Shown here piece after piece: positions 3,644-55,096 of a DNA stretch of 64,000 bases. The stretch spans positions 16,073 through 80,072 of the IMG/VR virus record IMGVR_UViG_3300032308_002078; one strand, written 5' to 3'. The position numbers and the translations under genes are program-made. The number at the start of each line of letters is the position of its first letter. Position 1 is the first letter of the stretch. The DNA comes from a virus (taxonomy: Duplodnaviria; Heunggongvirae; Uroviricota; Caudoviricetes). The notes beneath the pieces were generated by a model, which worked only from the letters and a program-made list of their open reading frames with translations, was not told where the DNA came from and searched no databases.

Positions 3644-4486
3644 ATGGACATAAAAACCATTAAAATGAATATTAATACAAAGATTTATCTAGTTACTAAT
3701 TGTTATAATGATCCTAATAAAGTTTATATAGGCAAAACTAAAAATAATAGAAAAAATGACCATAAAAAAACTTATGGAGATCAAACAGAATATACTTATA
3801 TTGATGAAGTTAATAGTTTAGATTATAAAGACTGGGAACCACTAGAGACATATTGGATAGAACAATTTAGACAATGGGGTTTTGAAATAATGAATAAACG
3901 AAAAAAAGGAGGAAGTGGACCTGATTTTTGTAGTGAAAACACAAAAATCAATATTGGAAAAAACAATCGTGGAAAGAAAAAACCTGGAGTTAGTTTAGCT
4001 TTAAAAGGAGTAAAAAGACCATATATAATAGGAGTTGCTGAAAAAATAAGTGAATCTAAACAAGGTATGAAATTAACAGAAGAGTGGAAATACAAAATCA
4101 GTGAAAGCACTAAAGGTAATACAAATCGTTTAGGTACCACTCAATCCCTAGAAACTAAAGATAAAATTAGTAAAGCTTTAAAAGGTAAAAAACGAAATGA
4201 AGAAACAATTCAAAAAATGAAAAAACCTAGACTTGATTCTTCTAATTTTGGAAAACATAGAAAAGGAACAAAAGCAAGTAAAGAAACTTTAAAAAAACAA
4301 AAACAAGCTAAACATTATTTATTAAAACCTGTTGTTCAATATGATAAACAAGGTAACATTATTAATGAATTTGACGGTGTACGAGAAGCTTCAAGACAAA
4401 CAGGATGCTATGACTCAGCAATAACTTTATGCTGTCAGGGAAAATTAAAAACAACAAAAGGATTTATTTTTAAATATAAAAACTAA
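3644..4486 (+). CDS. GIY-YIG homing endonuclease with NUMOD3-like repeats and C-terminal NUMOD1/HTH
   Basis: IYLVTN...VYIGKTKN (GIY-YIG); repeated GKK.S.ET modules; C-terminal VVQYDKQGNIINEF...GFIFKY; own upstream TATTTATAAT motif. Confidence 0.75.
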   Translation: MDIKTIKMNINTKIYLVTNCYNDPNKVYIGKTKNNRKNDHKKTYGDQTEYTYIDEVNSLDYKDWEPLETYWIEQFRQWGFEIMNKRKKGGSGPDFCSENTKINIGKNNRGKKKPGVSLALKGVKRPYIIGVAEKISESKQGMKLTEEWKYKISESTKGNTNRLGTTQSLETKDKISKALKGKKRNEETIQKMKKPRLDSSNFGKHRKGTKASKETLKKQKQAKHYLLKPVVQYDKQGNIINEFDGVREASRQTGCYDSAITLCCQGKLKTTKGFIFKYKN

Positions 4487-4488
4487 AA

Positions 4489-5136
4489 ATGCCAAAAGCC
4501 AAACACCTAGGAAAAGAAATGATATTAGCCGCTATGGCTAAAACTAAATCTAATAAAGCTAGTGCTAGATACTTGAACGTTTCATACATACATTATAAGA
4601 AATGGGCTAAAAAATATGAAGCCACACAACCTGGTTATACTGATTTGTTTGAACAACATAAAAACCAATCTGGTAAAGGTATTCCTAAGTTTTTAAGTAA
4701 TGGTAGTCCAAGAAAAGAATTTGCTTTATTAGATTTAATTGAAGGTAGAATAGATCCATCATCATTTAATCCAGCTAAAATAAAATATAGACTTATACAA
4801 GAAGGTTATTTACAAGAGGAATGTTCTACTTGTGGGTTTCATGAACGTAGGGTATTAGACTATAAAATGCCTTTAATTATGCATTTTAAAGATGGTAACA
4901 AACAGCATTATCGACTTGAAAATATACAGTTATTATGTTACAATTGTTATTACTTATACCAAGGTGATTTATTTACTGGTAAACAAATTGAGGGAATGGA
5001 AGACCATGTATCTAAAAATGAATCTAAAGTGGATTGGGAAGTAGATGATTATACTAAAGAACGTTTAAAGGAATTAGGTCTATATGATTCAAAACCAATA
5101 GATGATGATCCTTATGATTTAATATCTAGACTTTAA
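4489..5136 (+). CDS. HNH homing endonuclease (Mob-like)
   Basis: CSTCGFHERRVLD...HFKDGNKQHYRLENIQLLCYNC, an HNH/His-Me finger with flanking Cys pairs; N-terminal HTH-like region. Confidence 0.6.
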   Translation: MPKAKHLGKEMILAAMAKTKSNKASARYLNVSYIHYKKWAKKYEATQPGYTDLFEQHKNQSGKGIPKFLSNGSPRKEFALLDLIEGRIDPSSFNPAKIKYRLIQEGYLQEECSTCGFHERRVLDYKMPLIMHFKDGNKQHYRLENIQLLCYNCYYLYQGDLFTGKQIEGMEDHVSKNESKVDWEVDDYTKERLKELGLYDSKPIDDDPYDLISRL

Positions 5137-5187
5137 ATCTAACGGCCAAAATTTTGGACTTCATAATATTTATAATAAATAAATACT

Positions 5188-5871
5188 ATGAAAGAAATAA
5201 CTTATATTTATTATTTACATACTGGAGATAATATGCCTTTTTATATTGGAAAATCTATATCTCCTAAAGGTAGAATTAGTGAACATAAAAGAAATTTTGG
5301 GGATGTTGTTTTAGAAATAATAGATTATATTCCTACTAAAGACTGGTTATTTTGGGAAAAATGGTATATTGAACTTTTTAAATCTTGGGGATTTAAATTA
5401 AAAAATAAAAACAAAGGTGGAGGTGGAACTGATTTCCATAGTGAAAAAACTAAACAATTAATGTCTAAACCTAAACCAAAAGGATTTGGAGAAAAAACTA
5501 CCCAACGTCTTTTAGGGAAGAAACAATCTCAAGAAACAATAGATAAAAGAGCCGCTAAAAATAAAGGAAAAAAACGAACTTTAGAACAAAGAGCAACTCT
5601 TAGTAAAGTTTTTAAAAATAGAGTATTTAGTGAAGAACGTAATAAAAAAATTGGTGATGCTCAAAGAGGTATTCCTCAACCTAAATCTCAAGAATGTATA
5701 GCTAAATTAAAAAAACCTATTATACAATATGATAAACAAGGTAATTTTATTAAAGAATGGGACAGTTCTACAGACGCTGGAAAATTTTATGGGTCAAATG
5801 CTACCATCCAAAATGCATTAGCTCAAAGAAGATGTAAAAGTGCTTATGGTTACGTTTGGAAGTATAAATAA
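5188..5871 (+). CDS. GIY-YIG homing endonuclease
   Basis: ITYIYYL...FYIGKS...GRISEHK; NUMOD3 repeats; C-terminal IIQYDKQGNFIKEW...GYVWKY. Confidence 0.75.
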   Translation: MKEITYIYYLHTGDNMPFYIGKSISPKGRISEHKRNFGDVVLEIIDYIPTKDWLFWEKWYIELFKSWGFKLKNKNKGGGGTDFHSEKTKQLMSKPKPKGFGEKTTQRLLGKKQSQETIDKRAAKNKGKKRTLEQRATLSKVFKNRVFSEERNKKIGDAQRGIPQPKSQECIAKLKKPIIQYDKQGNFIKEWDSSTDAGKFYGSNATIQNALAQRRCKSAYGYVWKYK

Positions 5872-5891
5872 GGATTTGTATATTTATCTAT

Positions 5892-6080
5892 GTGAAAAAA
5901 AAACGAGTTCCTTTACTTAAAAAAAATAAACATAAGAAACATGACGCTATTGTCAATGATTTTGAAACACAAAAAAACAAACATTTAGAAAAGTTAGCAA
6001 CAAAAACACTAGCAGAACAAGAAAAACTAAGTAAATTAAAAGAAAAGAACATTAACACAGATTTTTTTAAATTATTTTAA
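5892..6080 (+). CDS. lysine-rich small basic protein
   Basis: 62 aa, more than 30% Lys/Arg. Confidence 0.3.
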   Translation: MKKKRVPLLKKNKHKKHDAIVNDFETQKNKHLEKLATKTLAEQEKLSKLKEKNINTDFFKLF

Positions 6081-15351: not shown

Positions 15352-17121
15352 ATGCCAAATCCTGTTGCTGTTAATGATCTAAGTCCTATATCCGGAAGCC
15401 TGCAAACCTCTAGGATAAGTTATGCTGTAGATACAGCAGGTAAAGATTATGGTCAAGACTACAACGGTACTACCTGGTATTCAGATATTCCACAAAACGG
15501 AAGTCAATATACAATTATTTCAGATAATTACACAGCTAACTACTATGTATCTCGTTCAAATGCCGAAGGTGCTTATGTTGAAGGTGGTTTACCAGCAGTA
15601 GATGAATATTCTGCTCCTGTGTTTTGGTTGACGGCAGGTACATCAAGTTTAGATATTATAACTATTGTGAATGGATTACCTGATAGAAGAGGACAAATAC
15701 CATTTAACTCGGGTTCTCAAGCATTAAATTGGGTCGCCTCATCAAGTAATTATTTTGCTGTTGGGCCTCCATATGAACAAATTGATGCTGATTCTTTAAA
15801 ATTATATTTAAATGCAGGTCAAATTATTTCTTATCCAACTACAGCTTCTACTTGGTATGATATAAGTGGATATAATGGTTTAGGAACTTTAACTAATGGA
15901 CCTACATTTAATACAAATGGATGGATTGCTTTTGACGGAACAAACGATTATGTTAACTTTTTTAATAACCTTAATCTAAACATAGGTACTAGTAACTTTT
16001 CAGAAACAGTTACTTTTTTAATCAACTCAGTTACAAGTGGTCAAAGAATAACTTTTAAAAGATTTGGAGGTTTAGGGTATGGTTACTCTATGTTTATAGA
16101 TGGAACTGGAGCACTTGGATTTGAAATTCTTACCCCAAGTACATCTATTACTGCGTATGGTGGGTATCCTTCAACAGGAAGATGGCATCAAGCAACATTT
16201 TCATTAGATAGAGCAGGAAATGGTATATTATATCTTGATGGGGTTGCAGGTACTCCTGTTAACTTTAGTTCATTAGTTGGGTTAGATATTTCTAATAATG
16301 AGGATTTTTGTTTAGCAGCAGTAAGTCCTGCTATTGGTGGTGGTGCTTACTTAAATGGAAACTTATCAACAGTATCTTCATACTCTAAACAATTATCAGC
16401 AGCAGACGTGGCTCAAAACTACTACGGTGGTCCAATTGTAACAAATGGTTTAGTATATGCTCTAGATGCAGGTAATTTAGTATCATATCCCAAATCAGGA
16501 ACAACATGGTATACTTTAACAGGGAGTGTAGATGGAACTTTAACAAATGGCCCTACATTTAGTTCCCTAAACGATGGGTATATTAATTTTGATGGAACTA
16601 ATGATTATGTTGGGTTTGGAAATAACATATTATTTCCTGGAGTATCATTAAATGGAACTATTTCTGAATTAACAATAGACGTTTGGGTCAATTGGAACCA
16701 ATTCTGTGTTGGTGGAGCATTAGATGAAATTATATCATGGTGGGCTTCAGGAACTCAGACATATTCAGATGGTTTCCTAGGAACTTCTATTATATCTCCG
16801 TATTCTCCAACCAACCCTGGAATCCGCTTTGGAGATGATTGGGTTGGTACAGGGGTAACATTTACAGCTGCTACTGATGTAAATAAATGGTGGAATATAA
16901 TGGCTATAAAATCCTCCAATAATGCTTACATATACATAAACGGAGAATTAAGAGCGACTAAAGGTAGTGCTTTAGATTGGGGTTTTAATAATTATGCCTA
17001 TGTCGCTGCTCATGGAGGTGGGGCAACAGAATTTTTAGATGGAAAAATAGCCTCATTACGCCTATACAATAGAGCACTCACCGCAGCAGAAGTCTTACAA
17101 AACTATAACGCAACAAAATAA
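15352..17121 (+). CDS. tail fibre paralogue with two concanavalin A-like/LamG lectin domains
   Basis: Conserved N-terminus MPNPVAVNDLSPISGSL..ISYAVD; repeated LDAGN..SYP..GTTWY.L.G...GTLTNGPTF...FDGTNDYV and LYNRALTAAEVLQNY LamG-type modules. Confidence 0.55.
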   Translation: MPNPVAVNDLSPISGSLQTSRISYAVDTAGKDYGQDYNGTTWYSDIPQNGSQYTIISDNYTANYYVSRSNAEGAYVEGGLPAVDEYSAPVFWLTAGTSSLDIITIVNGLPDRRGQIPFNSGSQALNWVASSSNYFAVGPPYEQIDADSLKLYLNAGQIISYPTTASTWYDISGYNGLGTLTNGPTFNTNGWIAFDGTNDYVNFFNNLNLNIGTSNFSETVTFLINSVTSGQRITFKRFGGLGYGYSMFIDGTGALGFEILTPSTSITAYGGYPSTGRWHQATFSLDRAGNGILYLDGVAGTPVNFSSLVGLDISNNEDFCLAAVSPAIGGGAYLNGNLSTVSSYSKQLSAADVAQNYYGGPIVTNGLVYALDAGNLVSYPKSGTTWYTLTGSVDGTLTNGPTFSSLNDGYINFDGTNDYVGFGNNILFPGVSLNGTISELTIDVWVNWNQFCVGGALDEIISWWASGTQTYSDGFLGTSIISPYSPTNPGIRFGDDWVGTGVTFTAATDVNKWWNIMAIKSSNNAYIYINGELRATKGSALDWGFNNYAYVAAHGGGATEFLDGKIASLRLYNRALTAAEVLQNYNATK

Positions 17122-18596: not shown

Positions 18597-18678
18597 TTAA
18601 TATTTATAATAAAATAATAATATTTATAATCGCCAAGTCGAGGTGGCATTTAAGATATTAAAAATATAATACCCAAGC

Positions 18679-19470
18679 GTGAGTAAGGACCTCGACCCTG
18701 AAAGCGTCTTGGGTTTTTTATTTATGAATAATATAACTTACATATACGAATTATCAAAAAATGGAATACCATTTTATATTGGAAAAACAATATCCCATGT
18801 TGTTAGAAAACATTACCATAAATTAACTTATGGGAAAGATATTGTATTTACTATCATAGATGAAATACAAGGAGATAAAAATCAATGGAAACCTTTAGAA
18901 ATGTATTGGATAAACCAATATCAACAATGGGGTTTTGTTTTAAAAAATAAAAATGAAGGTGGTGGAGGTAGAAAAATTATTTATACTAGAGAAGAGATAA
19001 GACAAAGACGTAACGAACAAACCAAACAATGGAATAAAATCCACCCAGAAGTAAGTAAAAAATATTCTGAAGAAAACAAAGAAAAATTTAAAGAATATAG
19101 AGAAACAAATAAAGAAAAAATGCTTCAACAAACTAAAGAATGGAGAAAAAATAATCCTGAGTTAGCTAAACAAATGGTAAAAGATTATCAGGAGAAACAT
19201 AAAGAACAGATTAAATCCTATATGCAGGAATGGCAATCCGCTAACAAAGAAAAAATAAGAGAGTATAATAGAATTTATAAAAATTCAAAATCTACCAAAC
19301 AAAGAAAAAATATAATTCAATATACTTTAGACGATATTTTTATCAAAGAATGGAATTCAGCTACTGAAGCTGCTTTATTTTTAAATAAAAAAACACCTGC
19401 GGCAATATATGAAGTATGTAATGGAAAACGAAAAACTATTTATGGATATAAATGGGGATATAAAAATTAA
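18679..19470 (+). CDS. GIY-YIG homing endonuclease inserted between tail-fibre genes
   Basis: ITYIYEL...FYIGKT; Lys/Glu-rich repeats; C-terminal IIQYTLDDIFIKEWNSATEAALFL...GYKWGY; two ATATTTATAATAAA motifs upstream. Confidence 0.7.
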   Translation: MSKDLDPESVLGFLFMNNITYIYELSKNGIPFYIGKTISHVVRKHYHKLTYGKDIVFTIIDEIQGDKNQWKPLEMYWINQYQQWGFVLKNKNEGGGGRKIIYTREEIRQRRNEQTKQWNKIHPEVSKKYSEENKEKFKEYRETNKEKMLQQTKEWRKNNPELAKQMVKDYQEKHKEQIKSYMQEWQSANKEKIREYNRIYKNSKSTKQRKNIIQYTLDDIFIKEWNSATEAALFLNKKTPAAIYEVCNGKRKTIYGYKWGYKN

Positions 19471-25570: not shown

Positions 25571-26416
25571 ATGAAAAAACTACTAATGACTCTAGTGCTT
25601 ACTTTGATGACAGCACTATCTTTATCCGCGAAATGTGATTGGAGCACACTTAAACTTCAACAATGGAATGAACGTAACTACTATAAGTGGTATGTAAGTG
25701 GGAAAGTATTAGATGATACTTGTGTAGATTGGATGTTTATGGTTTATGATTTTCAAACCAAAAAGACTGATACTGTTAGAGATAACAGAGGGTTGGTAGA
25801 AGTTCAATTTAACGTTAAGGGTAAGTATAAAATGTATTTGAAGGTTTGGAACAAATGTGAGAAGTGTGACACAGCCCTTTACCGGCCTTTAGAAATTATA
25901 CAATTCCCAGGTGCTAAAGTATCTAGTGTAGTAAAGACAGTAGATTGTAAAAAATATACATTTGAAATGAGCTACATTAAAGGATATCCTTTGAAAGATA
26001 CTTGTATGAGCTACTACTTAATGTTCTATTCAGGCCCTTGGATGGCTAAAATGAGTCAAGGTGAATGGGATTCACTCAGTGATTATCAAATTGGAATGGA
26101 GTATGATTTCCCAGATGCTGATTTCTTAGGGTATACTGAAACACGAACTGCTGATTATATCTTTAAAGATACAGGCCGTGTATTAGTGATTGCTCAATGG
26201 TGGAACAAATGTCTTAGACAAGATACGTTTATGTTTAGAAAGCTAGATGTTTGTAAACGTTCTAATGTTTCTAATGTAGTTACATTTAATCGCCCCGAAC
26301 CAAAATTGGTTGCAATGTATGATATTATGGGTCGTCCAGTCCAATATGTTCGTGAAAATGAAATTACTATTTATTTGTATAGTGATGGTTCAACACGAAA
26401 AATAATTAAAAAATAA
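25571..26416 (+). CDS. secreted cysteine-rich protein
   Basis: Signal peptide MKKLLMTLVLTLMTALSLSA; multiple Cys. Confidence 0.4.
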   Translation: MKKLLMTLVLTLMTALSLSAKCDWSTLKLQQWNERNYYKWYVSGKVLDDTCVDWMFMVYDFQTKKTDTVRDNRGLVEVQFNVKGKYKMYLKVWNKCEKCDTALYRPLEIIQFPGAKVSSVVKTVDCKKYTFEMSYIKGYPLKDTCMSYYLMFYSGPWMAKMSQGEWDSLSDYQIGMEYDFPDADFLGYTETRTADYIFKDTGRVLVIAQWWNKCLRQDTFMFRKLDVCKRSNVSNVVTFNRPEPKLVAMYDIMGRPVQYVRENEITIYLYSDGSTRKIIKK

Positions 26417-26436
26417 TTTAAAAATATTTTACAATA

Positions 26437-26462
26437 GGGTTGGCTTTCGCCAACCTTTTTGT
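26437..26462 (+). terminator. rho-independent terminator
   Basis: GGGTTGGC tttc GCCAACC hairpin followed by T-run, then promoter motif. Confidence 0.55.
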
Positions 26463-26486
26463 TATATTAACTGTATAATAAAAGTT

Positions 26487-26909
26487 ATGAAAAAAATAGA
26501 ATACACTAATCGTTACAATGATGTTTTTACATTTAGTAAAACAGAAGATGGTAACATTTTGTTTGAAGGAGAGTTTAAATGGATGCGTTGTGGTTGGCCT
26601 AATGTTTATGATAATGCTTATGAAGCTTATTGTGCTGATGTTGATAGTGATGAGAGAATGACAATGGGTGAATTTAAGAAAGCCGTTCATGAATATGATC
26701 CTGAAACATTTAAATCAACTCCATTATCTAAACAATACGCTAAGTTAGTTTATTCAGACCAAAGTAGAATTGATATGATAGACGCCAGTGGCGGTCCATA
26801 TTTACATAGTGGTTATGATATGGGAATGTTTGATAAATCATTTAAAGGAATGATTGTTAAAGAATTTAAACCAGTTCCAGAAGGATATTTAATTATTATT
26901 GAAAAATAA
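26487..26909 (+). CDS. hypothetical protein
   Basis: 140 aa. Confidence 0.35.
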   Translation: MKKIEYTNRYNDVFTFSKTEDGNILFEGEFKWMRCGWPNVYDNAYEAYCADVDSDERMTMGEFKKAVHEYDPETFKSTPLSKQYAKLVYSDQSRIDMIDASGGPYLHSGYDMGMFDKSFKGMIVKEFKPVPEGYLIIIEK

Positions 26910-26912
26910 GTT

Positions 26913-27269
26913 ATGGAAAATACATTTATCTACAATTTAAGCGAGACCGAGTATTTGGTATTTAAATCACAACGTGATTGCTTTGAGTTATTCAGTGGAC
27001 ATGAAGGTTCAGAAACAAACAGTAAACTAGCTACTTATAAAGGAGGTAGATGGATATTTAATGATTATAATCAGAAAAAATTATTCTGGTTTTTGTTTAG
27101 TATTTATAAAAAGGATTTTGGTAAGGCGCTTAAACAATATATTCGCTCACAACAAGATAAACCTAAAACATATATGATTACTTGTGCTAAACGTAGGGTT
27201 GATATTAAAATTACAAAAATAAAACGTAATATGTGGGATTGGTTTTATGGAACATTTTATGGCAAATAA
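26913..27269 (+). CDS. hypothetical protein
   Basis: 118 aa. Confidence 0.35.
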   Translation: MENTFIYNLSETEYLVFKSQRDCFELFSGHEGSETNSKLATYKGGRWIFNDYNQKKLFWFLFSIYKKDFGKALKQYIRSQQDKPKTYMITCAKRRVDIKITKIKRNMWDWFYGTFYGK

Positions 27270-27360
27270 TAGATTAGACGAACAGTATCAAAGATTGCTT
27301 CAAGACATTATTGATTTTGGAGTTGATAAGAAAGATAGGACAGGGACTGGTTTCCTTTAA
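27259..27360 (+). pseudogene. thyA: vestigial 5' fragment of a thymidylate synthase gene (33 codons)
   Basis: Translates MANNRLDEQYQRLLQDIIDFGVDKKDRTGTGFL*, the canonical ThyA N-terminus including the DRTGTG motif; stops after 33 aa; lies upstream of the GIY-YIG gene and the intact thyA. Confidence 0.5.
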
Positions 27361-27407
27361 CAACTACTAAAAAAACTAGGCCTTCTGTATATTTATAATA
27401 AAATATT

Positions 27408-28082
27408 ATGAGTATAGGAATATATAAAATAACAAATCCAAAAGGACAAATATATGTTGGACAGTCTATTAATATTGAAAGAAGATTTAAAGAATATAAA
27501 AGATTAGCTAAACGTGCTGCTGGAAGAAAAATTTTAAATTCATTAAAAGGGTTTGGGGTTAAAAATCATGTTTTTGAAATTATTGAAGAATGTTTAATAG
27601 AACAATTACATGAAAAAGAATATTATTGGAAAAAATATTATACATCAGTAGAAAATGGTTTAAATTGTGATTATTTTGATAATAGTGGAGGACCTAGAAG
27701 TGAAGAAACAAAACGTAAAATTTCTGAAGGAGCTAAAGGTAAAAAACGGTCTGAAGAAACAAAACAAAAACTTAAAAAACCTAAAACAGAAGAACATAAA
27801 CAAAATATAAGTAAATCAAAACAAAATATATCTGAAGAAACAAAACGTAAAATTTCTGAGGGTAAAAAAGGAAAAACACCTAATAGGGATTATAAAGAAT
27901 GGGCTAAAACAAGAACAAATCCTATTCTTCAATATGATTTAGATGGAAATTTTATTAAAGAATGGGAAGGAACAAAAGCTGCAGCTTTATATTTAGGTTG
28001 TGATCCTACTACTATAACAGCAAATTTAAGAGGAATAACAAAAAAAGGATACGGTTTTATATGGAAAAGAAAAACAATTTAG
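27408..28082 (+). CDS. GIY-YIG homing endonuclease adjacent to thyA
   Basis: GIYKITNPKGQIYVGQSINIERRFKEYKR; NUMOD3 repeats SEETKRKISEGKKGK; C-terminal ILQYDLDGNFIKEW...GYGFIWK. Confidence 0.7.
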   Translation: MSIGIYKITNPKGQIYVGQSINIERRFKEYKRLAKRAAGRKILNSLKGFGVKNHVFEIIEECLIEQLHEKEYYWKKYYTSVENGLNCDYFDNSGGPRSEETKRKISEGAKGKKRSEETKQKLKKPKTEEHKQNISKSKQNISEETKRKISEGKKGKTPNRDYKEWAKTRTNPILQYDLDGNFIKEWEGTKAAALYLGCDPTTITANLRGITKKGYGFIWKRKTI

Positions 28083-29140
28083 ATCCACAATATAATAATT
28101 TATTGAAGGATATTTTAGAAAATGGAATTAAAAAACAAACCAGAAATGGAGAAGTAATTTCAGTATTTGGAAGACAAATTCGACATAATATGTCAGATGG
28201 GTTCCCTCTTTTAACAGGGAAAAAGATGTTTTTTAAAGGTATTGTAACTGAATTACTATGGTTCTTACGTGGTGATACAAACATTAAGTTCCTTGTTGAT
28301 AATGGTTGTCATATTTGGGATGGTGATGCTTATAAGAGATATGTTAATAGTCCTGAAGTGAAGATTCCATATAGTAAAGAAGATTTTATCAATAAAATTA
28401 AAACAGATAAAGAGTGGGAAGATAAGTGGGGTGATTTAGGACCAATTTATGGTAAACAATGGAGAAATTGGAATGGAGATAATTTTATTTATGGTGACTT
28501 TAAAAATGGTATAGACCAAATCCAAAATCTAATCAACGACCTTAAAACAAATCCAGACTCAAGACGATTGATGGTTAATGCTTGGAATGTAGGTGAATTA
28601 AATCAAACGGTTCTTCCACCTTGTCATTACAGCTGGCAAATGTATACAAGAGAGTTGAGTAGAGAAGAAAGAATAGAAAACTATAACTCTAAATTTGAAA
28701 ATAAAATAGAAGTACCGTTTATAAAATTAAACTTGGGAGATGCAATAGAAAATACTATCGATATGACTCTAAGTCAAGTTAACATACCAACACGAGCAAT
28801 CTCTTTAATGTGGAATCAACGTTCGGTTGATGTATTCCTAGGTTTGCCGTTTAATATCGCTTCATACGGTCTATTACTTGAGATGATTGCACGTGAAGTA
28901 AATATGGTGCCTGAATATTTAATCGGTCATTTAGGCGACACACATTTGTATTCAAACCATATTGAACAAGCTAAAGAACAAATTAGCAGAACACCTAAAA
29001 AATTACCTACATTAAAAATGAGTTCGGGTCATAATTTTAGAGCAGCAATGGATGGTAAAGTAGATGAAATTGACTTGAATGATTTTATATTACTTGGATA
29101 TGAACCACACCCAACAATTAAAGCCCCTTTATCAAATTAA
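28061..29140 (+). CDS. thyA: thymidylate synthase (ThyA) with about 50-aa internal insertion
   Basis: Conserved ThyA blocks RNGEV...FG.Q.R, GFPLLTGKK, ELLWFLRGDTN, DLGPIYGKQWRNW, R.LMVNAWN, LPPCH (catalytic Cys), DVFLGLPFNIASYGLL, GDTHLYSNH, GYEPHP.IKAP; insertion after the PCH block as in some phage and Firmicutes ThyA. Confidence 0.85.
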   Translation: MEKKNNLDPQYNNLLKDILENGIKKQTRNGEVISVFGRQIRHNMSDGFPLLTGKKMFFKGIVTELLWFLRGDTNIKFLVDNGCHIWDGDAYKRYVNSPEVKIPYSKEDFINKIKTDKEWEDKWGDLGPIYGKQWRNWNGDNFIYGDFKNGIDQIQNLINDLKTNPDSRRLMVNAWNVGELNQTVLPPCHYSWQMYTRELSREERIENYNSKFENKIEVPFIKLNLGDAIENTIDMTLSQVNIPTRAISLMWNQRSVDVFLGLPFNIASYGLLLEMIAREVNMVPEYLIGHLGDTHLYSNHIEQAKEQISRTPKKLPTLKMSSGHNFRAAMDGKVDEIDLNDFILLGYEPHPTIKAPLSN

Positions 29141-29142
29141 CT

Positions 29143-29376
29143 ATGAATTATACTAATGTTGCTATGATTGAAGAGTATGCTAAACCAATTGTTGCCTCAT
29201 GTGATTGGGATGCATTACTTGACTTAATAGATGATTATTTTGGTCCTGAAAGTAAACGATTAGGATGGTATGTTAGTAATGCTAAGTACCCTGATACTTA
29301 TGTTGGTTACTTTGAGTATAGAGATAGTTATGGTGATGTTGTTGAAGTAAAAATTTACGAGGTAGATTTTAAATAA
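29143..29376 (+). CDS. hypothetical protein
   Basis: 77 aa. Confidence 0.3.
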   Translation: MNYTNVAMIEEYAKPIVASCDWDALLDLIDDYFGPESKRLGWYVSNAKYPDTYVGYFEYRDSYGDVVEVKIYEVDFK

Positions 29377-29390
29377 TAATATTTATCGCT

Positions 29391-29840
29391 GTGCGATTTA
29401 TATTAATTATATTAACTTTATTCACATCTAATATTGTTTATAGCCAAATTATTTTACCGGTTACGGCGAGTCAATATACTAAAACTATTGACTCGGCTAT
29501 AACACTAATCAAAATAACAGACACAGCTGTTTATAATAGATTAGATTCAATGGTTGATGTAATTGATATGTGGTTAAGTGCTTTTTCCTCTTGTGATACT
29601 AAAGTTATCTACATAAGTCGAAACGATGTTTTATTAGGTGTTCAAAACGTAGCTGCTGTTTTGGTTCATGAAAGTCAACATTTATGGATTTGGCATTCAA
29701 ATATTAATTTAAATAAACAAGATGAGGAAATAATGTGTTATAAGTATGAGTTAGCATTTTTAGATAAAATACCTAACTGTGAAAAATATCTTAAAAAACA
29801 TGCTATAAATGCTATAATTGAGTTTGGCTCTTCAAAATAG
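29391..29840 (+). CDS. secreted protein with HExxH-like motif (GTG start)
   Basis: Signal-like N-terminus MRFILIILTLFTSNIVYSQ; VLVHESQHLW. Confidence 0.3.
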   Translation: MRFILIILTLFTSNIVYSQIILPVTASQYTKTIDSAITLIKITDTAVYNRLDSMVDVIDMWLSAFSSCDTKVIYISRNDVLLGVQNVAAVLVHESQHLWIWHSNINLNKQDEEIMCYKYELAFLDKIPNCEKYLKKHAINAIIEFGSSK

Positions 29841-50805: not shown

Positions 50806-50891
50806 GCTACTGTGGCGGAATAGGTAGACGCGTTGGACTTAAAATCCAATGGACAGTAATGTTCGTACCGGTTCGATTCCGGTCAGTAGTA
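50806..50891 (+). tRNA. tRNA-Leu (anticodon TAA), class II
   Basis: Acceptor GCTACTG/CAGTAGT; D-arm TGGCGGAATAGGTAGACGC; anticodon loop CTTAAAA; long variable arm; T-loop TTCGATT. Confidence 0.7.
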
Positions 50892-50924
50892 CAAAAAATA
50901 AAAAATTATATATTTATATCAAAA

Positions 50925-51115
50925 TGAAAAAAGTATTATTTATCGCCGCTATTTTCGCTTTGGCTTCTTGCTCAAACGAAACTACTACCTCTTCAACCGA
51001 TTCAACATGTGTTGATTCAACTTGTTCTGATTCATTTAACACTGATTCTCTTATCCAAATCACAGAAGCACATGCTGATTCTTTGCATACAGAGATTATG
51101 GAGTTGAAAAAATAA
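50925..51115 (+). CDS. small lipoprotein embedded in tRNA array
   Basis: MKKVLFIAAIFALASC lipobox; Ser/Thr/Asp-rich mature region; track ORF 50849 starts inside tRNA-Leu. Confidence 0.45.
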
Positions 51116-51126
51116 TAACTCTAAAC

Positions 51127-51209
51127 GCCGAGATCGCATAGCGGTTGATTGCACCTGACTTGTAATCAGGTTCCGTAAGGACACGCCAGTTCGAATCTGG
51201 CTCTCGGCT
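51127..51209 (+). tRNA. atypical class II tRNA with anticodon loop CTTGTAA (reads as UGU)
   Basis: Acceptor GCCGAGA/TCTCGGC; 3-bp D-stem; AGCGGTTGATT D-loop like the Tyr and Ser genes here; anticodon stem CCTGA/TCAGG; 14-nt variable arm; T-loop TTCGAAT. Confidence 0.45.
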
Positions 51210-51270
51210 CAAATGTAGTCTTCAATTAACTCCCCGACCCAATTAAAATGTTAGTTGGAGGCTACTCCCC

Positions 51271-51345
51271 GCGGGTGTCGTATAATGGTTATTACACTAG
51301 CCTTCCAAGCCTGTGATGTCAGTTCGATTCTGTCCACCCGCTCCA
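51271..51345 (+). tRNA. tRNA-Gly (TCC)-like with weakened anticodon stem; encoded CCA
   Basis: Perfect acceptor GCGGGTG/CACCCGC; loop CTTCCAA identical to bacterial Gly-UCC; anticodon stem CTAGC/GCCTG pairs at only 3 of 5 positions. Confidence 0.45.
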
Positions 51346-51370
51346 AAAAGAAAGAAAAAAATTAAATATA

Positions 51371-51420
51371 GTTTGGCGATTTAAAATTCCTTACATATAT
51401 TTATCACATATTAAAACACA
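51371..51420 (+). promoter_or_regulatory. promoter-like motif inside tRNA array
   Basis: GTTTGGCG ... TACATATATTTATCACATATTAAAA, a variant of the recurrent GTTTGGC(T) / TTATATTTA motif. Confidence 0.4.
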
Positions 51421-51554
51421 TTAAAACATGAAACATTGTAGATCATATCAGTTTAGTCTTAAAGCCGCTTGGATGAATCGTCCGGTGTCTGAGGATATTA
51501 AATTGATAGGGCTTATGATGTGATGTTTTTAAAGACATATTGAAACACAAAGTA

Positions 51555-51584
51555 AGCCCGATTCACAAGATCGGGCATTTTTTA
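51555..51584 (+). terminator. rho-independent terminator
   Basis: GCCCGAT tcacaa GATCGGGC hairpin plus T6. Confidence 0.65.
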
Positions 51585-51586
51585 TG

Positions 51587-51605
51587 TTCTTTGACGTATG
51601 AGAAA
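51587..51605 (+). repeat. 19-nt exact direct repeat TTCTTTGACGTATGAGAAA (second copy at 53086-53104)
   Basis: Both copies sit 5-7 nt upstream of the first tRNA of a sub-array (Phe at 51610; Leu-TAG at 53110); contains TTGACG. Confidence 0.55.
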
Positions 51606-51609
51606 AATT

Positions 51610-51682
51610 GCGACGGTAGCAAAGATGGTCAATGCACTGGACTGAAAATCCAGCCATGCAGGTTCGAGTCCTGCCCGTCGCA
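51610..51682 (+). tRNA. tRNA-Phe (GAA)
   Basis: Acceptor GCGACGG/CCGTCGC; anticodon stem-loop CTGGA CTGAAAA TCCAG. Confidence 0.7.
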
Positions 51683-51691
51683 CAAATAAAC

Positions 51692-51767
51692 AGCGTAGTA
51701 GAGGAGTCTGGTTTATCTCATCTGCTTTGGGAGCAGAGGCACGCCGGTTCGAATCCGGCCTACGCTA
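51692..51767 (+). tRNA. tRNA-Pro (TGG)
   Basis: Acceptor AGCGTAG/CTACGCT; anticodon stem-loop TCTGC TTTGGGA GCAGA. Confidence 0.7.
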
Positions 51768-51775
51768 CAAAATAT

Positions 51776-51849
51776 GACTTCGTAGCTCAATAGGTTAGAG
51801 CACCTCACTTTTAATGAGGGGGTTTCGAGTTCGAGTCTCGACGGGGTCA
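51776..51849 (+). tRNA. tRNA-Lys (TTT)
   Basis: D-arm TAGCTCAATAGGTTAGAGC; anticodon CCTCA CTTTTAA TGAGG. Confidence 0.7.
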
Positions 51850-51855
51850 CAATTT

Positions 51856-51931
51856 CTTTCCTTCGCTTAGTTGGTTTTAAAGCATCTCTTTTACACAGAG
51901 AAGATCGTTGGTTCGAATCCAGCAGGAAAGA
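51856..51931 (+). tRNA. tRNA-Val (TAC)
   Basis: Acceptor CTTTCCT/AGGAAAG; anticodon TCTCT TTTACAC AGAGA. Confidence 0.65.
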
Positions 51932-51940
51932 CAAATAAAT

Positions 51941-52022
51941 GCCAGTATCGCATAGCGGCAATTGCTGGGGACTGTAAATCCCCTCTCTTTGGAGTTCGTA
52001 GGTTCGAGTCCTGCTGCTGGCA
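51941..52022 (+). tRNA. tRNA-Tyr (GTA), class II
   Basis: Anticodon GGGGA CTGTAAA TCCCC; long variable arm; acceptor GCCAGTA/TGCTGGC. Confidence 0.7.
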
Positions 52023-52029
52023 CTAAAAT

Positions 52030-52103
52030 GGAGATATAGCTCAATTGGTTAGAGCGCCTGCCTGATACACATAAGGTTATAGGTTCGAGTCCTATTTTCT
52101 CCA
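52030..52103 (+). tRNA. tRNA-like gene, possibly Ile (GAT), with non-pairing anticodon stem
   Basis: Canonical acceptor, D-arm (TAGCTCAATTGGTTAGAGC) and T-arm; anticodon region CCTGC CTGATAC ACATA does not form a stem. Confidence 0.3.
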
Positions 52104-52112
52104 CAATTAAAT

Positions 52113-52185
52113 GGTGTATGTAACTCAGAGGAAGAGTACTCGCTTGTGACGCGAGAAGTCGGGATTTCGAAACTCCTCATATACC
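52113..52185 (+). tRNA. tRNA-His (GTG) with G-1
   Basis: 8-bp acceptor G-GTGTATG/CATATAC-C; anticodon CTCGC TTGTGAC GCGAG. Confidence 0.65.
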
Positions 52186-52191
52186 CTAAAA

Positions 52192-52275
52192 GGAAAATGA
52201 CCCTTGATGGTGATAGGGCTTGCCTGCTAAGCAATGTGTACCTTCGGGTATTTGGTTCGATTCCAACTTTTTCCG
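52192..52275 (+). tRNA. tRNA-Ser (GCT), class II
   Basis: 3-bp D-stem CCC/GGG; anticodon TTGC CTGCTAA GCAA; variable arm hairpin TACC ttcg GGTA; discriminator G. Confidence 0.65.
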
Positions 52276-52296
52276 CTATGTAAAAAATACTTATAA

Positions 52297-52759
52297 AAAA
52301 CAGATTATGAACTTCAAGACCCTATCAAACAGAAAAACAGTTGACTTAGTTGACTACATTAAAGCGTATTTAAACGACAACCCCAACACCGAATTGTTAG
52401 TTGGGTGCGACTCGCAAAACTATGCTTATAACACAACTTATGCCACTGTAGTAGCGCTTTATAAGCCGAAGGGTGGTGCGCATGTTTTATTCAATAAAGA
52501 AGTTTTACCTCTAGAAAAAGTAAGACAAGTACGTTTAATGAATGAGGTTTGGAAGTCTGTTGAAGTAGCAGAATTACTTAAAAATTCAGGTTTACCTCAA
52601 GTTAAATATATTGATATAGACATCAACCCAGACAAAAAATATAAATCAAATGAAGTATTAAGAGCGGCAGTTGGTTTAGTTGAAGGTATGGGTTATAAAG
52701 TTAGATACAAATCATTAGGCGTTATGGCAACATACGCTGCTGATATGCTAGTAAAATAA
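52297..52759 (+). CDS. hypothetical protein between tRNA sub-arrays (start revised to MNFKT)
   Basis: Track ORF 52220 starts inside tRNA-Ser; ATG 52297 follows it; 154 aa. Confidence 0.4.
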
Positions 52760-52763
52760 CAAT

Positions 52764-52836
52764 TGTTCTTTCGTCCAACGGATTAGGACACTTCGCTACG
52801 AACGAAGAAATAGGGGTTCGAATCCCTTAAGAACAA
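52764..52836 (+). tRNA. tRNA-Arg (ACG)
   Basis: Acceptor TGTTCTT/AAGAACA; anticodon CTTCG CTACGAA CGAAG. Confidence 0.65.
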
Positions 52837-52842
52837 CTAAAA

Positions 52843-52912
52843 GTTCAGGTTGGTTTAGGAAGCCGGGTAGTCTGCAAAACTACTGAAGTAGGTTCGATTC
52901 CTACCTTGAACT
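52843..52912 (+). tRNA. tRNA-Cys (GCA)
   Basis: Anticodon GTAGT CTGCAAA ACTAC; short D-arm. Confidence 0.55.
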
Positions 52913-52919
52913 CAAATAC

Positions 52920-52990
52920 GCGAGTGTGGTGAAATGGTATCATAATGGTCTCCAAAACTATTGTTGAGGGTTCGAATCCTTCCACTCGTG
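52920..52990 (+). tRNA. tRNA-Trp (CCA)
   Basis: Acceptor GCGAGTG/CACTCGT; anticodon ATGGT CTCCAAA ACTAT. Confidence 0.6.
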
Positions 52991-53020
52991 CAAAAGAAAG
53001 TTAAAAAGTTTTAAAAACAG

Positions 53021-53068
53021 GTTTGGCTTTCATAAGACATGATGTTATATTTATGTCATAATAAAAAT
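53021..53068 (+). promoter_or_regulatory. conserved host-type promoter motif driving second tRNA sub-array
   Basis: GTTTGGCTTT-N14-GATGTTATATTTATGTCATAATAAAAA, near-identical to copies at 8783, 36670 and 49861; no ATG follows, tRNA-Leu starts about 40 bp downstream. Confidence 0.55.
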
Positions 53069-53109
53069 AATAAGAATTAAAAAGTTCTTTGACGTATGAG
53101 AAATTAAAT

Positions 53110-53191
53110 GCCGAGGTGGTGGAAATGGTAGACACACCGGTCTTAGAAACCGGAGCGTAACAGCATGCGAGTTCGACTCTCGCCCACGGTA
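53110..53191 (+). tRNA. tRNA-Leu (TAG), class II
   Basis: D-arm TGGTGGAAATGGTAGACAC; anticodon CCGGT CTTAGAA ACCGG; long variable arm. Confidence 0.65.
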
Positions 53192-53196
53192 CAAAT

Positions 53197-53318
53197 AGTC
53201 AAATGGCGGAATGGTAAACGCTGTGTATGCTCGATTAGACACCAGTACGAGGCAATGAAAATCTTGCACGTAGGGCTTAGAAAACTGGTTATAGGTTCGA
53301 ATCCTGTTTTGACTACCA
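53197..53318 (+). tRNA. unusually long (about 120 nt) tRNA-like gene A; encoded CCA
   Basis: Acceptor AGTCAAA/TTTGACT; Leu-like D-arm TGGCGGAATGGTAAACGC; T-arm ATAGG TTCGAAT CCTGT; about 65 nt between D-arm and T-arm including a CCAGT...ACTGG hairpin. Confidence 0.35.
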
Positions 53319-53372
53319 AGTTAACCCACTAAGACTAGAAACGGGTGACAGCTCGGAAAGTACGAGCAATAT

Positions 53373-53478
53373 AGTCAGGTGGCGGAAGTTATCGGTAGAG
53401 TGATGATTGATTGGAAGACATTAAGTTGACACCCACTCAATATGTAGCTTAATGCAGGTTCGAATCCTGTTCTGACTA
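53373..53478 (+). tRNA. unusually long (about 106 nt) tRNA-like gene B, paralogue of A
   Basis: Same ends as A (AGTCAGG TGGCGGAA ... GGTTCGAATCCTGTTCTGACTA); internal 7-bp stem CATTAAG/CTTAATG enclosing 22 nt. Confidence 0.35.
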
Positions 53479-53528
53479 CGGAGAATGGTTAGTACTAAAC
53501 AACAAAATCGAAAAGGAAGTACAAATAC

Positions 53529-53603
53529 GCCTTCATAGCTCAGTGGTAGAGCAAGCGGCTGTTAACCGCTGGGTCGTAGGTTCAAATCCTGCTGAGGGCG
53601 CCA
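53529..53603 (+). tRNA. tRNA-Asn (GTT); encoded CCA
   Basis: Anticodon AGCGG CTGTTAA CCGCT; acceptor GCCTTCA/TGAGGGC. Confidence 0.7.
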
Positions 53604-53609
53604 ATAAAT

Positions 53610-53681
53610 GGCCCGTTCGTCTATCGGTTAGGACACCAGGTTTTCAACCTGTAAAGACGAGTTCGATTCTCGTACGGGCTA
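53610..53681 (+). tRNA. tRNA-Glu (TTC)
   Basis: Anticodon CCAGG TTTTCAA CCTGT; acceptor GGCCCGT/ACGGGCT. Confidence 0.65.
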
Positions 53682-53694
53682 CAAAAAAATAAAT

Positions 53695-53769
53695 AGCGGG
53701 GTAGAGCAGAGGTAGCTTGCAAGGCTCATAACCTTGAGGTCGCTGGTTCGAGTCCAGCCCCCGCTACCA
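53695..53769 (+). tRNA. tRNA-Met (CAT) copy 1; encoded CCA
   Basis: Acceptor AGCGGGG/CCCCGCT; anticodon CAAGG CTCATAA CCTTG. Confidence 0.65.
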
Positions 53770-53779
53770 AAAAATAACT

Positions 53780-53857
53780 AGCGGGGAACTAGAGCTGGTG
53801 CACTGACGAGTCTCATAAGCTCGGACTAGGTGGGTTCGATTCCCACCCCCGCTACCA
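53780..53857 (+). tRNA. CAT-anticodon tRNA copy 2 (initiator Met, elongator Met or Ile2); encoded CCA
   Basis: Same acceptor AGCGGGG/CCCCGCT; anticodon CGAGT CTCATAA GCTCG; D-arm and variable region differ from copy 1. Confidence 0.55.
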
Positions 53858-53864
53858 AATAAAT

Positions 53865-53935
53865 TACCCTCTCGTCTAACGGCAGGACAAGTGGTTTTGG
53901 GCCACTGAATCGGAGTTCGAATCTCTGGGGGGTAA
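53865..53935 (+). tRNA. tRNA-Gln (TTG)
   Basis: Anticodon AGTGG TTTTGGG CCACT; acceptor TACCCTC/GGGGGTA. Confidence 0.6.
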
Positions 53936-53942
53936 CAAAAAT

Positions 53943-54015
53943 GGGCTGTTGGTATAGTCGGCTAACACGATTGCCTTGCACGCAGTAGTCCCCAGTTCGA
54001 ACCTGGGACGGTCCA
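53943..54015 (+). tRNA. tRNA-Ala (TGC) with G3:U70
   Basis: Acceptor GGGCTGT/ACGGTCC gives the G3-T70 wobble identity pair; anticodon ATTGC CTTGCAC GCAGT. Confidence 0.65.
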
Positions 54016-54027
54016 CAAAAATAATTT

Positions 54028-54102
54028 GGTCTATTAGTGTAGTGGTTAACACGCCTCACTGTCTATGAGGTAGCCTCGGTTCGAATCCGTGATAGACCGC
54101 CA
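54028..54102 (+). tRNA. tRNA-Asp (GTC); encoded CCA
   Basis: Perfect acceptor GGTCTAT/ATAGACC; anticodon CCTCA CTGTCTA TGAGG. Confidence 0.7.
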
Positions 54103-54110
54103 ACATATAC

Positions 54111-54198
54111 GGAAGTTTGGCAGAGTTGGCCGATTGCGCTAGTCTTGAAAACTAGAGATGCCGAAAGGTATCCGGGGGTTCGAATCCCTCAGCTTCCG
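54111..54198 (+). tRNA. tRNA-Ser (TGA), class II
   Basis: Anticodon CTAGT CTTGAAA ACTAG; long variable arm GATGCCGAAAGGTATC; discriminator G. Confidence 0.7.
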
Positions 54199-54308
54199 CA
54201 CCTTAAAACCAGTTCAGGTCCGTGATCAAGGGAGGCCTGTTCTTCTCGTGCAAGAAAGAAATCACGTTAAATCTCCCCACGCTAGGTGGTATTGGTGACC
54301 TAGCACTT

Positions 54309-54380
54309 GCCTCCATAGTTAAATGGATATAACAGGAATCTTCTAAGTTCTAGTTCGTGGTTCGATTCCACGTGGAGGTA
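54309..54380 (+). tRNA. tRNA-Arg (TCT)
   Basis: Acceptor GCCTCCA/TGGAGGT; anticodon GGAAT CTTCTAA GTTCT; T-arm CGTGG TTCGATT CCACG. Confidence 0.6.
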
Positions 54381-54435
54381 TAAAAAATTTCTCATACAGC
54401 TTGGATATTTAAAAAAACATTATTATATTAACATT

Positions 54436-54873
54436 ATGAATTTGACAAAAGCACTAAAACACAAAAAGAAGCTTGTTAAACAAGCAGATGAAGCGTTTAT
54501 GCGTTTCCAAAGGTATAATTCTCAAAATAAAGAGAATGTAGATAAAGGTTATGACCCAGAAACTGCTTACCGTAAATGGATTGCTTTAACACAAGAGTTG
54601 ATTACTCTAAAAACTAAAATCCATAATGCAAACGCTCCTATTGCAAATAAAATTTTCCGTTTGGGTGAATTAAAGAATTTGGTTTCTCGTTTACGTAATA
54701 TTGATACTAAAAAAGGACTTATTAGAGAGCATCGTTCAGCAGATTCTATTCCTGTTGAATATGTAGCATACATGGATTTGTTTACTAAAGATAATCAAAT
54801 TTTTAATTGGGAACAAGAAATTGAAACCATTCAAGAAGAGATTGAGGCATTTAATGCCATCACAAAGATATAA
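54436..54873 (+). CDS. hypothetical protein
   Basis: 145 aa; follows TTATATTAACATT promoter motif. Confidence 0.35.
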   Translation: MNLTKALKHKKKLVKQADEAFMRFQRYNSQNKENVDKGYDPETAYRKWIALTQELITLKTKIHNANAPIANKIFRLGELKNLVSRLRNIDTKKGLIREHRSADSIPVEYVAYMDLFTKDNQIFNWEQEIETIQEEIEAFNAITKI

Positions 54874-55096
54874 CCAATTTAAAGAGTAAAATTAGATTAG
54901 TAGCGCCTTGTACAAATCTGCTTGCGGATTTATACATACCCTAGATAGATAACAAATCTATCCTCATAAGACTGATGCTTGGATATTGATTTTGATAAAT
55001 GCCTTAAGATTTAAAATTCAAAATTTAATATTGGGAAAACTCAAATCTTAAAACTTTTCAGCGAACATTTAATTTTACTCTACTTTGGTTTTTTTT

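Follow-up and report, generated by a model that had tools for sequence, protein, structure and literature searches.

A GIY-YIG endonuclease gene that probably travels with a replacement start of its target gene, thyA, in a phage genome

To invade essential genes, homing endonucleases generally hide in introns or inteins; otherwise they occupy intergenic positions, from which their spread depends on synteny. In fungal mitochondria, mobile endonuclease open reading frames (mORFs) carry a foreign gene end, as at atp6 of Allomyces macrogynus and at atp6, atp9, cox2 and nad3 of Glomus (PMC3630166). We have analysed a 64,000-nucleotide (nt) stretch of Caudoviricetes DNA, positions 16,073 to 80,072 of IMG/VR record IMGVR_UViG_3300032308_002078 (the window), in which a GIY-YIG endonuclease gene (27408..28082) lies between a vestigial thyA 5′ end, the stub (27259..27350), and an intact thymidylate synthase gene, thyA (28061..29140). 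Coordinates are window positions and all features of this locus are on the + strand. The endonuclease is probably a free-standing, I-TevI-like enzyme that travels as one cassette, made up of a thyA relic, a motif resembling a promoter, its own gene and the opening ~70 codons of a thyA allele resistant to cleavage. By analogy, the fungal mORFs appear to be its closest counterpart. In both cases the endonuclease ORF seems to move with a replacement terminal part of its target gene, the native end is kept adjacent as a remnant that matches a sister lineage, and the inserted end is divergent. The hybrid gene of the mORFs is expressed and the remnant is unused; the hybrid ORF in the window, full length and with its catalytic motifs, is predicted to be the expressed copy. 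The mORFs replace the 3′ (C-terminal) end, reside in mitochondria and are mostly LAGLIDADG enzymes, whereas the window is phage DNA in which the replaced part is the 5′ (N-terminal) end with its start codon, and the stop codon of a GIY-YIG gene overlaps the new start.

Several phage systems share parts of this arrangement. The T4 Seg endonucleases (SegF and SegG, PMC2988022; SegB, PMC2330249) are known from intronless homing and, as in the window, the gene for a GIY-YIG enzyme is located beside its target gene and not inside it. Seg enzymes cut the neighbouring gene of an endonuclease-free phage, flanks are co-converted and immunity comes from site polymorphism; a similar course is likely here, judging from the sequence. 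Seg homing relies on homology in both flanks and duplicates no gene fragment, whereas the left junction in the window lies inside the target, a stub is left, and the cassette has a fixed left end bearing a relic of the target gene. I-TevI of the T4 td intron and I-BmoI of a Bacillus thyA intron are GIY-YIG endonucleases (PMC3664794, PMC5009752, PMC2988022). They share with the window enzyme a GIY-YIG domain, a linker and a NUMOD/helix-turn-helix region, together with a thymidylate synthase target at conserved active-site codons (putatively so in the window). Both are intron-encoded and their target is around the catalytic cysteine far downstream, whereas the window enzyme is free-standing and would act on the segment encoding the N-terminal phosphate-binding loop. 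Intronless invasion of the coding sequence of an essential nucleotide-metabolism gene is also described for the genes-in-pieces mobE insertion in nrdA of Aeromonas phage Aeh1 (Friedrich et al. 2007, in PMC2988022 and PMC10448857). In Aeh1 neither piece is dispensable, and the two polypeptides come together as separate chains. The upstream piece in the window, by contrast, is redundant; a true split thyA is seen in a related contig, L173. The T4 mobA–gene 60 cassette, attributed to Bonocora et al. (2011, PNAS), reportedly consists of an endonuclease and the 5′ part of the downstream gene with a 50-nt bypass insert. There too a phage endonuclease and the start of a downstream essential gene are said to form one mobile unit, and the change to the gene start is thought to protect against cleavage, parallel to the window. 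The mobA target is reportedly split (39/60) and its immunity derives from an untranslated insert bypassed by ribosomes; thyA in the window is a single ORF and its immunity would come from amino-acid-changing substitutions and a one-codon deletion. A preprint related to the mobA system is 10.1101/2022.08.31.505936. We found no description of this phage thyA arrangement in the literature searched, which is not proof of absence.

An initial annotation of the window, made from the sequence alone, had described a 33-codon ThyA-type ORF upstream of the endonuclease. Its ThyA N-terminus is real, but only codons 1 to 31 (MANNRLDEQYQRLLQDIIDFGVDKKDRTGTG, 27259..27350, recognised by Pfam and by homology to contigs L083 and L006) are resident; the two final codons and the stop codon are part of the junction. 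The ORF at 27259–27360 (or from an ATG at 27247) encodes MANNRLDEQYQRLLQDIIDFGVDKKDRTGTGFL; the start codon is retained and the frame continues to a stop at 27358–27360. The stub matches positions 1–24 of Pfam Thymidylat_synt with an E value of 0.005, sub-threshold only through its shortness. L-numbered contigs are IMG/VR records used for comparison. Aligned with related ThyA proteins, the stub is of the L083/L006 type, with amino acid (aa) identities of 93% to the L083 N-terminus and 86% to that of L006. At the nucleotide level window 26371–27350 is colinear with L083 4456–5435 (87%) and 26902–27341 with L006 (88%). The stub-matching sequence continues in L083 and L006 as a full-length thyA, and no endonuclease was found at thyA in either. 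The resemblance is not due to chance, because the stub is colinear with sequence that becomes a complete thyA in these relatives; on this alignment the stub is the resident thyA start. Directly upstream is a resident 118-aa gene (26913..27269), which marks the recipient backbone and whose end overlaps the stub ATG, as it does in endonuclease-free relatives. The 118-aa protein has no Pfam family match and is 92% identical to its counterpart in L083 and 86% to those in L006 and L084.

The alignments show that an L083/L006-like phage evidently carried an ordinary thyA directly behind the 118-aa gene. Codons ~32–70 of this thyA have been replaced by a 920-bp segment (27351–28270) whose nearest relatives are endonuclease-bearing contigs. 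Resident codons 1–31 persist as a presumably dead stub, and the ThyA predicted to be expressed starts inside the cassette. As an open alternative, the last ~20 nt of the stub may be L104-like, implying a left crossover inside a donor stub; only 2–3 diagnostic positions bear on this, and the stub as a whole is 71% identical to L104 versus 87% to L083.

The left boundary of the cassette is sharp. Homology to L083 ends at 27350 and that to L009 and to L021 starts exactly at 27351; cassette-type sequence in L104 starts at the position equivalent to 27351 (L104/L021 homology runs from L104 2570). The BLAST match between the window and L104 spans 27274–28337, extending left of 27351 because L104 has a thyA stub of its own. 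The cassette opens with a 25-nt relic of thyA codons ~47–55 (GFPLLTTKK), TTTCCTTTAACAACTACTAAAAAAA (27351..27375), which the initial annotation had overlooked. The relic differs from the L083/L006 gene at few positions only, and the cassette relic consensus, TTTCCTTTACTAACTACTAAAAAAG, matches L083/L006 thyA at 23–24 of 25 positions. This relic is also found directly upstream of the endonuclease in L009, L021, L104 and L186, and five different sequences lie to its left across these contigs and the window. In the window 49 nt of L083 sequence are missing between stub and relic; in L104 the gap is 41 nt, in L186 thyA codons 1–6 are joined straight to the relic, and in L009 and L021 no recognisable stub was found to its left. 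Since the relic is constant amid differing left sequences, the cassette's left end is fixed and the host side is variable. The 25-mer exactly spanning the 27350/27351 junction has no match in IMG/VR; analogous junctions were found in other contigs. We considered whether the relic length reflects an I-TevI-like cleavage–insertion distance of 23–25 nt and dropped the idea: weak thyA similarity may continue for ~12 nt further, so the length of the relic is poorly defined.

A promoter-like motif, ATATTTATAATAAAA (27389..27403), is located in an AT-rich stretch 4 nt upstream of the endonuclease ATG. The exact 15-mer occurs four times in the window; allowing up to two mismatches gives 17 matches versus 4.5 expected, a count reached by none of 100 shuffles. 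Copies sit 4–10 nt before ORF starts at 5188, 9952, 15352 and 19507, and the motif also precedes the two other types of thyA-linked endonuclease, B and C, introduced below. We read it as a putative phage promoter-like signal that is carried by the cassette. A sigma-70 promoter scan returned fewer matches than shuffled sequence, that consensus being uninformative for a Bacteroidota-type phage. In B-type cassettes a relic of thyA codons 19–25 (GGAGTAGAAAAGTCTGATAG) adjoins the promoter-like motif. We also note that L058 545–687 and L071 5045–5172 apparently hold two tandem relic layers, possibly marking successive homing events.

The initial annotation placed an intact thyA at 28061–29140 directly behind the endonuclease, with an overlap of 22 nt (28061–28082). 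These coordinates are confirmed and Pfam assigns both genes. The thyA product (359 aa) matches its Pfam family at 3.3e-93 and thymidylate synthases in the PDB at ~1e-70. The catalytic motifs R28, DSRR, PPCH, RSVD and DTHLY are present, and PPCH, DSRR, RSVD and DTHLYSNH align with the solved enzymes. The motif set is that of a full-length thymidylate synthase. In the PDB alignment TRNGE-V stands in place of the conserved DRTGTGT loop and the arginine is kept. The TRNGEV codons (28139..28156) are one codon fewer, seen as a one-residue gap, and form a putative immunity patch. The FPLLTGKK codons (28202..28225) are, from allele comparison, a possible second recognition or immunity determinant: alleles linked to A-type endonucleases (the type in the window) read LLT(G/C)K, other alleles read LLTTKK, and the relic at 27351–27375 is an undiverged version of this segment. 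Relative to solved enzymes, the ThyA sequence has an insertion of ~45 residues (residues ~198–245, window 28650–28800) between the catalytic-cysteine segment and RSVD. A second, hypervariable insertion point follows IWDGD (window 28340–28390), where relatives hold inserts of 0–60 residues; this is the position split by an endonuclease in L173.

The intact gene is a chimera. Sliding-window and segment identities mark its codons 1–70 (28061..28270) as a cassette-borne, donor-type 5′ part: identity to L104 is 96% overall and 98–100% in sliding windows up to ~28240, and identity to L009 is 83% overall and ~90% up to ~28210, as against 46–61% to L083 and L006. The gene does therefore have its own diverged N-terminus, as first annotated, and that N-terminus is L104-like. 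The identity switches from donor-like to resident-like within a right-hand crossover zone at 28271..28352. L083 homology resumes at 28271–28337 and then at 28377–29140, L006 homology resumes at 28432–29016, and high identity to L009 and L104 ends at 28337–28352. Further downstream, 28511–28810 is closest to L006 (95–100%) and 28811–29140 to L083 (91–95%). The breakpoints at about 28510 and 28810 are unrelated to the cassette. These identities make the intact thyA a mosaic drawn from at least three sources, and its first ~70 codons appear to have arrived with the endonuclease. The earlier suggestion of a 5′ replacement with co-conversion of flanking sequence is supported by a locus that is L083/L006-like to 27350, L104/L009/L021-like from 27351 to ~28270–28350, and L006/L083-like after that; a donor-type tract with these bounds is the pattern that homing would be expected to leave.

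The endonuclease (224 aa) has an N-terminal GIY-YIG domain followed by C-terminal NUMOD3 repeats and a NUMOD1 helix-turn-helix. The Pfam matches are GIY-YIG (PF01541, 1.5e-8), NUMOD3 (4.1e-7, two stretches) and NUMOD1 (5.2e-5), all above cut-off. Among solved structures it is closest to the I-TevI catalytic domain, 1mk0 (E 0.0027, at low identity); in this alignment the GIY...YVG motifs and the aligned R, E and N are present. Its domain content places the enzyme in the I-TevI/Seg-type GIY-YIG family. Its ORF is separate from thyA and out of frame with it. Endonucleases 88–91% identical to it occur in L009, L021 and L104–L109, all directly upstream of thyA. Compared with L104, the N-terminal (catalytic) half is 84% identical and the C-terminal (DNA-binding) half 99%. 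This pattern points to recombination between the endonuclease domains, in which the DNA-binding module would be inherited along with the resistant target. We observe that the DNA-binding half and the adjoining thyA start (window 27701–28250) form one block with 96–99% identity to L104, and that the catalytic half is equally distant from L009 and L021.

The stub–endonuclease–intact thyA layout recurs in L104, L053/L054 (two samples), L071, L058, L022 and L186. Three endonuclease lineages, ~30% identical to one another, are located directly upstream of thyA and overlap its start; we term these A (the window), B (L053, L058 and L071) and C (L022). The B and C enzymes score near or below Pfam cut-offs and keep the GIY...YIG N-terminus. 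All six IMG/VR endonucleases with at least 88% identity to that of the window lie directly upstream of thyA, as do none of 74 more distant ones, one of which (L173) is inside a split thyA. Every thyA behind such an endonuclease has TRNG(E/G)(V/T) in place of DRTGTGT and is one codon shorter there. Counted as clusters after 97% de-duplication, TRNG alleles have an upstream endonuclease in 9 of 20 cases (11 without) and DRTGTG alleles in 1 of 52 (51 without), the single case being a decayed C-type remnant in L005. Fisher's test on these counts, uncorrected for phylogeny, gives p = 1.7e-5.

Relatives that lack the endonuclease, which the initial annotation had suggested looking for, locate the site: L083 and L006 for the window, L011 for L053 and L051 for L058. 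The stubs of the window, L104, L071 and L053 all terminate inside the DRTGTGT codons. In the window the stub breaks off in the codons for DRTGTG (27334..27350); from the shared stub ends, this stretch would be the cleavage region of the endonuclease-free allele. Relative to L011, L053 carries 834 bp of inserted sequence, and the insertion point lies between L011 positions 6079 and 6087, within the DR|TGT|GT codons. L058 and L051 are identical over thyA codons 1–20 and 97–100% identical afterwards; the sole converted patch in L058, of ~35 nt, changes DRTGTGT to TRNGVT, and its endonuclease lies just upstream of the ATG. Because stub ends and conversion patches cluster there, we infer that the DRTGTGT-coding segment is both cleavage and immunity site. 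The FPLLTTKK codons may be a second determinant for the A-type enzyme.

Other contigs show related states of the locus. L023 (5903–6019) retains just ~35 terminal codons of an A-type endonuclease, followed by a TRNG thyA, L005 (5810–6010) has a C-type C-terminal remnant before a DRTGTG thyA, and L047 (from 6001) has an A-type-like thyA start (KNNIDPQYNNLLKDILENG..TRNGS..LLTCKK) at which no endonuclease was found; these loci could be stages of an endonuclease life cycle. In L050 an intact DRTGTG thyA is directly preceded by a 213-aa ORF (5379–6020), which opens with a ThyA-like N-terminus (MEDLDKKYQSLLQDVLNNGV) and then turns into unrelated sequence. No convincing Pfam family was found for this ORF, which appears to be another insertion at the thyA start and not an endonuclease. 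In L173 (2620–4823; IMGVR_UViG_3300046000_011443) thyA is split by a 283-aa GIY-YIG/NUMOD1 endonuclease into a 110-aa N-terminal and a 336-aa C-terminal ORF, with gaps of 3 and 5 nt. No Rfam intron was found there, and the locus resembles a genes-in-pieces thyA like Aeh1 nrdA/mobE.

We propose the following scheme for the cassette. During co-infection the endonuclease would cut an endonuclease-free thyA in the DRTGTGT-coding segment, possibly also recognising the FPLLTTKK codons, and the break would be repaired from the endonuclease-bearing genome, copying the cassette. On the right, repair would be resolved by homology within thyA (28271–28350). On the left, the broken DRTGTG end would be joined to the fixed left end of the cassette, leaving the stub; this join would be made without homology because donor and recipient share no homologous upstream gene. 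Free-standing endonucleases are described as being inherited only when resection reaches flanking homology (PMC2988022). The cassette's thyA copy, with TRNGEV (one codon shorter) and LLTGKK, would shield the carrier from self-cleavage, and the start codon and N-terminal codons that it carries would keep thyA functional. Since the cassette supplies this start codon and N-terminal coding region, thyA would need no intron, intein or splitting of the gene to remain functional.

Several points weigh against this proposal. The nearest empty-site relatives are 83–88% identical, and donor and recipient are represented by cousins, which leaves the course of events, a single homing event or several recombinations, ambiguous. 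The scheme does not account for how the left join was formed, for the 49-nt gap between stub and relic or for the constant left end of the cassette. The target site is deduced from junctions and allele association only. The eleven TRNG clusters without an adjacent endonuclease mean that the allele is not strictly linked to the enzyme, and TRNG could simply be the native allele of the clade that hosts these endonucleases. The window and all comparison contigs are, moreover, probably metagenomic assemblies.

In one alternative the stub is exon 1 of a group I intron of the T4 td or Bacillus thyA kind, spliced to the downstream ORF, and the endonuclease is intron-encoded. Such a reading has precedent, as thyA/td is a classic host of GIY-YIG intron endonucleases such as I-TevI and I-BmoI (PMC3664794, PMC5009752), and it would fit the retained stub start codon. 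An Rfam scan of 26500–29500 at E ≤ 10 found no group I intron and only a chance snoRNA match; at gathering thresholds, seven related loci likewise gave no group I intron and only a tRNA. The distance from the stub stop to the endonuclease start is 47 nt, and there are 0 nt 3′ of the endonuclease, whose end overlaps the thyA start; with 47 nt on one side of the ORF and none on the other there is no room for a ribozyme. The downstream ORF has a complete N-terminus of its own, and stub residues 1–31 are homologous to its residues 3–32, which makes the two duplicates and not successive exons. In L009 and L021 the endonuclease is followed by a full-length thyA (with the same 22-nt overlap in L021) and no recognisable stub precedes the cassette; stub lengths vary, and the L058 stub holds stop codons. 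The sequence thus already speaks against the intron, and we give it almost no chance. The view taken in the initial annotation, that this is not a td-style intron, is upheld by the Rfam results, the lack of ribozyme room and the duplicated N-termini; its description of a free-standing endonuclease with a target-gene remnant agrees with the missing intron, the separate ORF and the match of the stub to a sister lineage.

General homologous recombination among co-infecting phages might instead have made both mosaic and stub, leaving the endonuclease a passive or inactive passenger at the boundary. The additional thyA breakpoints at about 28510 and 28810, which are unrelated to the cassette, would be expected on this account, as would the mosaic endonuclease gene (84%/99% to L104) and the 11 endonuclease-free TRNG clusters. 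It sits less well with an intact endonuclease ORF that has its catalytic motifs, with three different endonuclease lineages at the same spot, or with junctions and a 35-nt conversion patch that converge on one short motif; nor does it explain a left junction that is non-homologous. We regard it as unlikely. A tandem duplication of the thyA 5′ end in situ, followed by divergence and later insertion of the endonuclease between the copies, would produce two thyA N-terminal segments in direct orientation ~800 bp apart, as observed. The copies are, however, only ~46–61% identical in nucleotide sequence, and each is 87–100% identical to another phage lineage (L083/L006 for the stub, L104 for the intact 5′ end), which makes a duplication very improbable. 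There is a similarly slight chance that 27350/27351 is an assembly artefact joining reads of two co-occurring strains, given that the window is probably a metagenomic contig and that its exact junction 25-mer is not in IMG/VR. The same architecture is found in independent contigs from other samples (L104, L186, L053/L054, L071, L058 and L022), and a chimera would not be expected to keep thyA full length, in frame and overlapping the stop of the endonuclease gene exactly as L009 and L021 do.

If the endonuclease does travel with a replacement start of its target gene, the locus and its relatives would represent a third phage route besides introns or inteins and intergenic positions. Such a route would explain how a free-standing endonuclease crosses between mosaic phage genomes that share the target and not its neighbours. 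Loci with an empty site, a fresh insertion, a decaying stub, an endonuclease remnant, a resistant allele lacking the endonuclease or a split thyA would together form a natural series through the life cycle of the endonuclease. The TRNG alleles suggest that an active-site loop of thymidylate synthase, otherwise nearly invariant, was remodelled under pressure from endonucleases. In annotation, short thyA-like ORFs that precede endonuclease genes of this kind would count as remnants, not exons. To the initial annotation our analysis adds the recurrence in three lineages, the TRNG patch, the fixed left end with its thyA relic and the mosaic of at least three origins.

A bolder and doubtful possibility is that the stub and relic are more than scars, serving as working parts of a self-contained mobile element, and that an arms race rewrote the DRTGTGT loop to TRNG. 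Target sequence on both sides, with the stub or relic at the left and the resistant thyA start at the right, would then permit homing into any thyA, whatever its neighbours, an invasion of the coding sequence of an essential gene free of both intron and intein. The stacked relics of L058 and L071 would in that case record successive homing events. By analogy with I-TevI autoregulation, the endonuclease's own DNA-binding domain might bind the invariant 25-nt relic beside the promoter-like motif as a putative operator.

Loci related to this thyA are numerous in IMG/VR (52–66% aa identity), and relatives of the upstream gene are also present there. The closest cultured phage in INPHARED is Flavobacterium phage immuto, whose thyA (69% nt and 55% aa identity) has no endonuclease; INPHARED relatives were dropped for breakpoint mapping as immuto is too distant. 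In L085–L094 and L102 a homologue of the upstream gene (81–88% aa identity) is present and no thyA was found within 5 kb downstream. As thyA is missing near this gene in many phages, its presence and position vary within the phage group. Upstream of the locus a strong terminator-like hairpin (26436–26457; 9-bp stem with five G–C pairs, followed by a T-run) is placed between an ORF ending at 26416 and one starting at 26487.

The window has a G+C content of 32% and contains a cluster of 24 tRNA genes (50806–55171, + strand) that cover most amino acids and include three tRNA-Met. Three neighbouring endonuclease-like ORFs are found at 3644–5871. The ORF at 3644–4486 has NUMOD3, NUMOD1 and I-HmuI NUMOD-like matches above cut-offs, that at 4489–5136 a weak HNH match and that at 5188–5871 a weak GIY-YIG match; upstream of the third lies a ATATTTATAATAAA motif that has one mismatch. 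A further ORF at 18679–19470 (263 aa) has a C-terminus like the DNA-binding end of the thyA-linked endonucleases (31–48% by tblastn, with a weak I-HmuI NUMOD-like match) and is flanked by exact copies of the 15-mer at 18600 and 19482.

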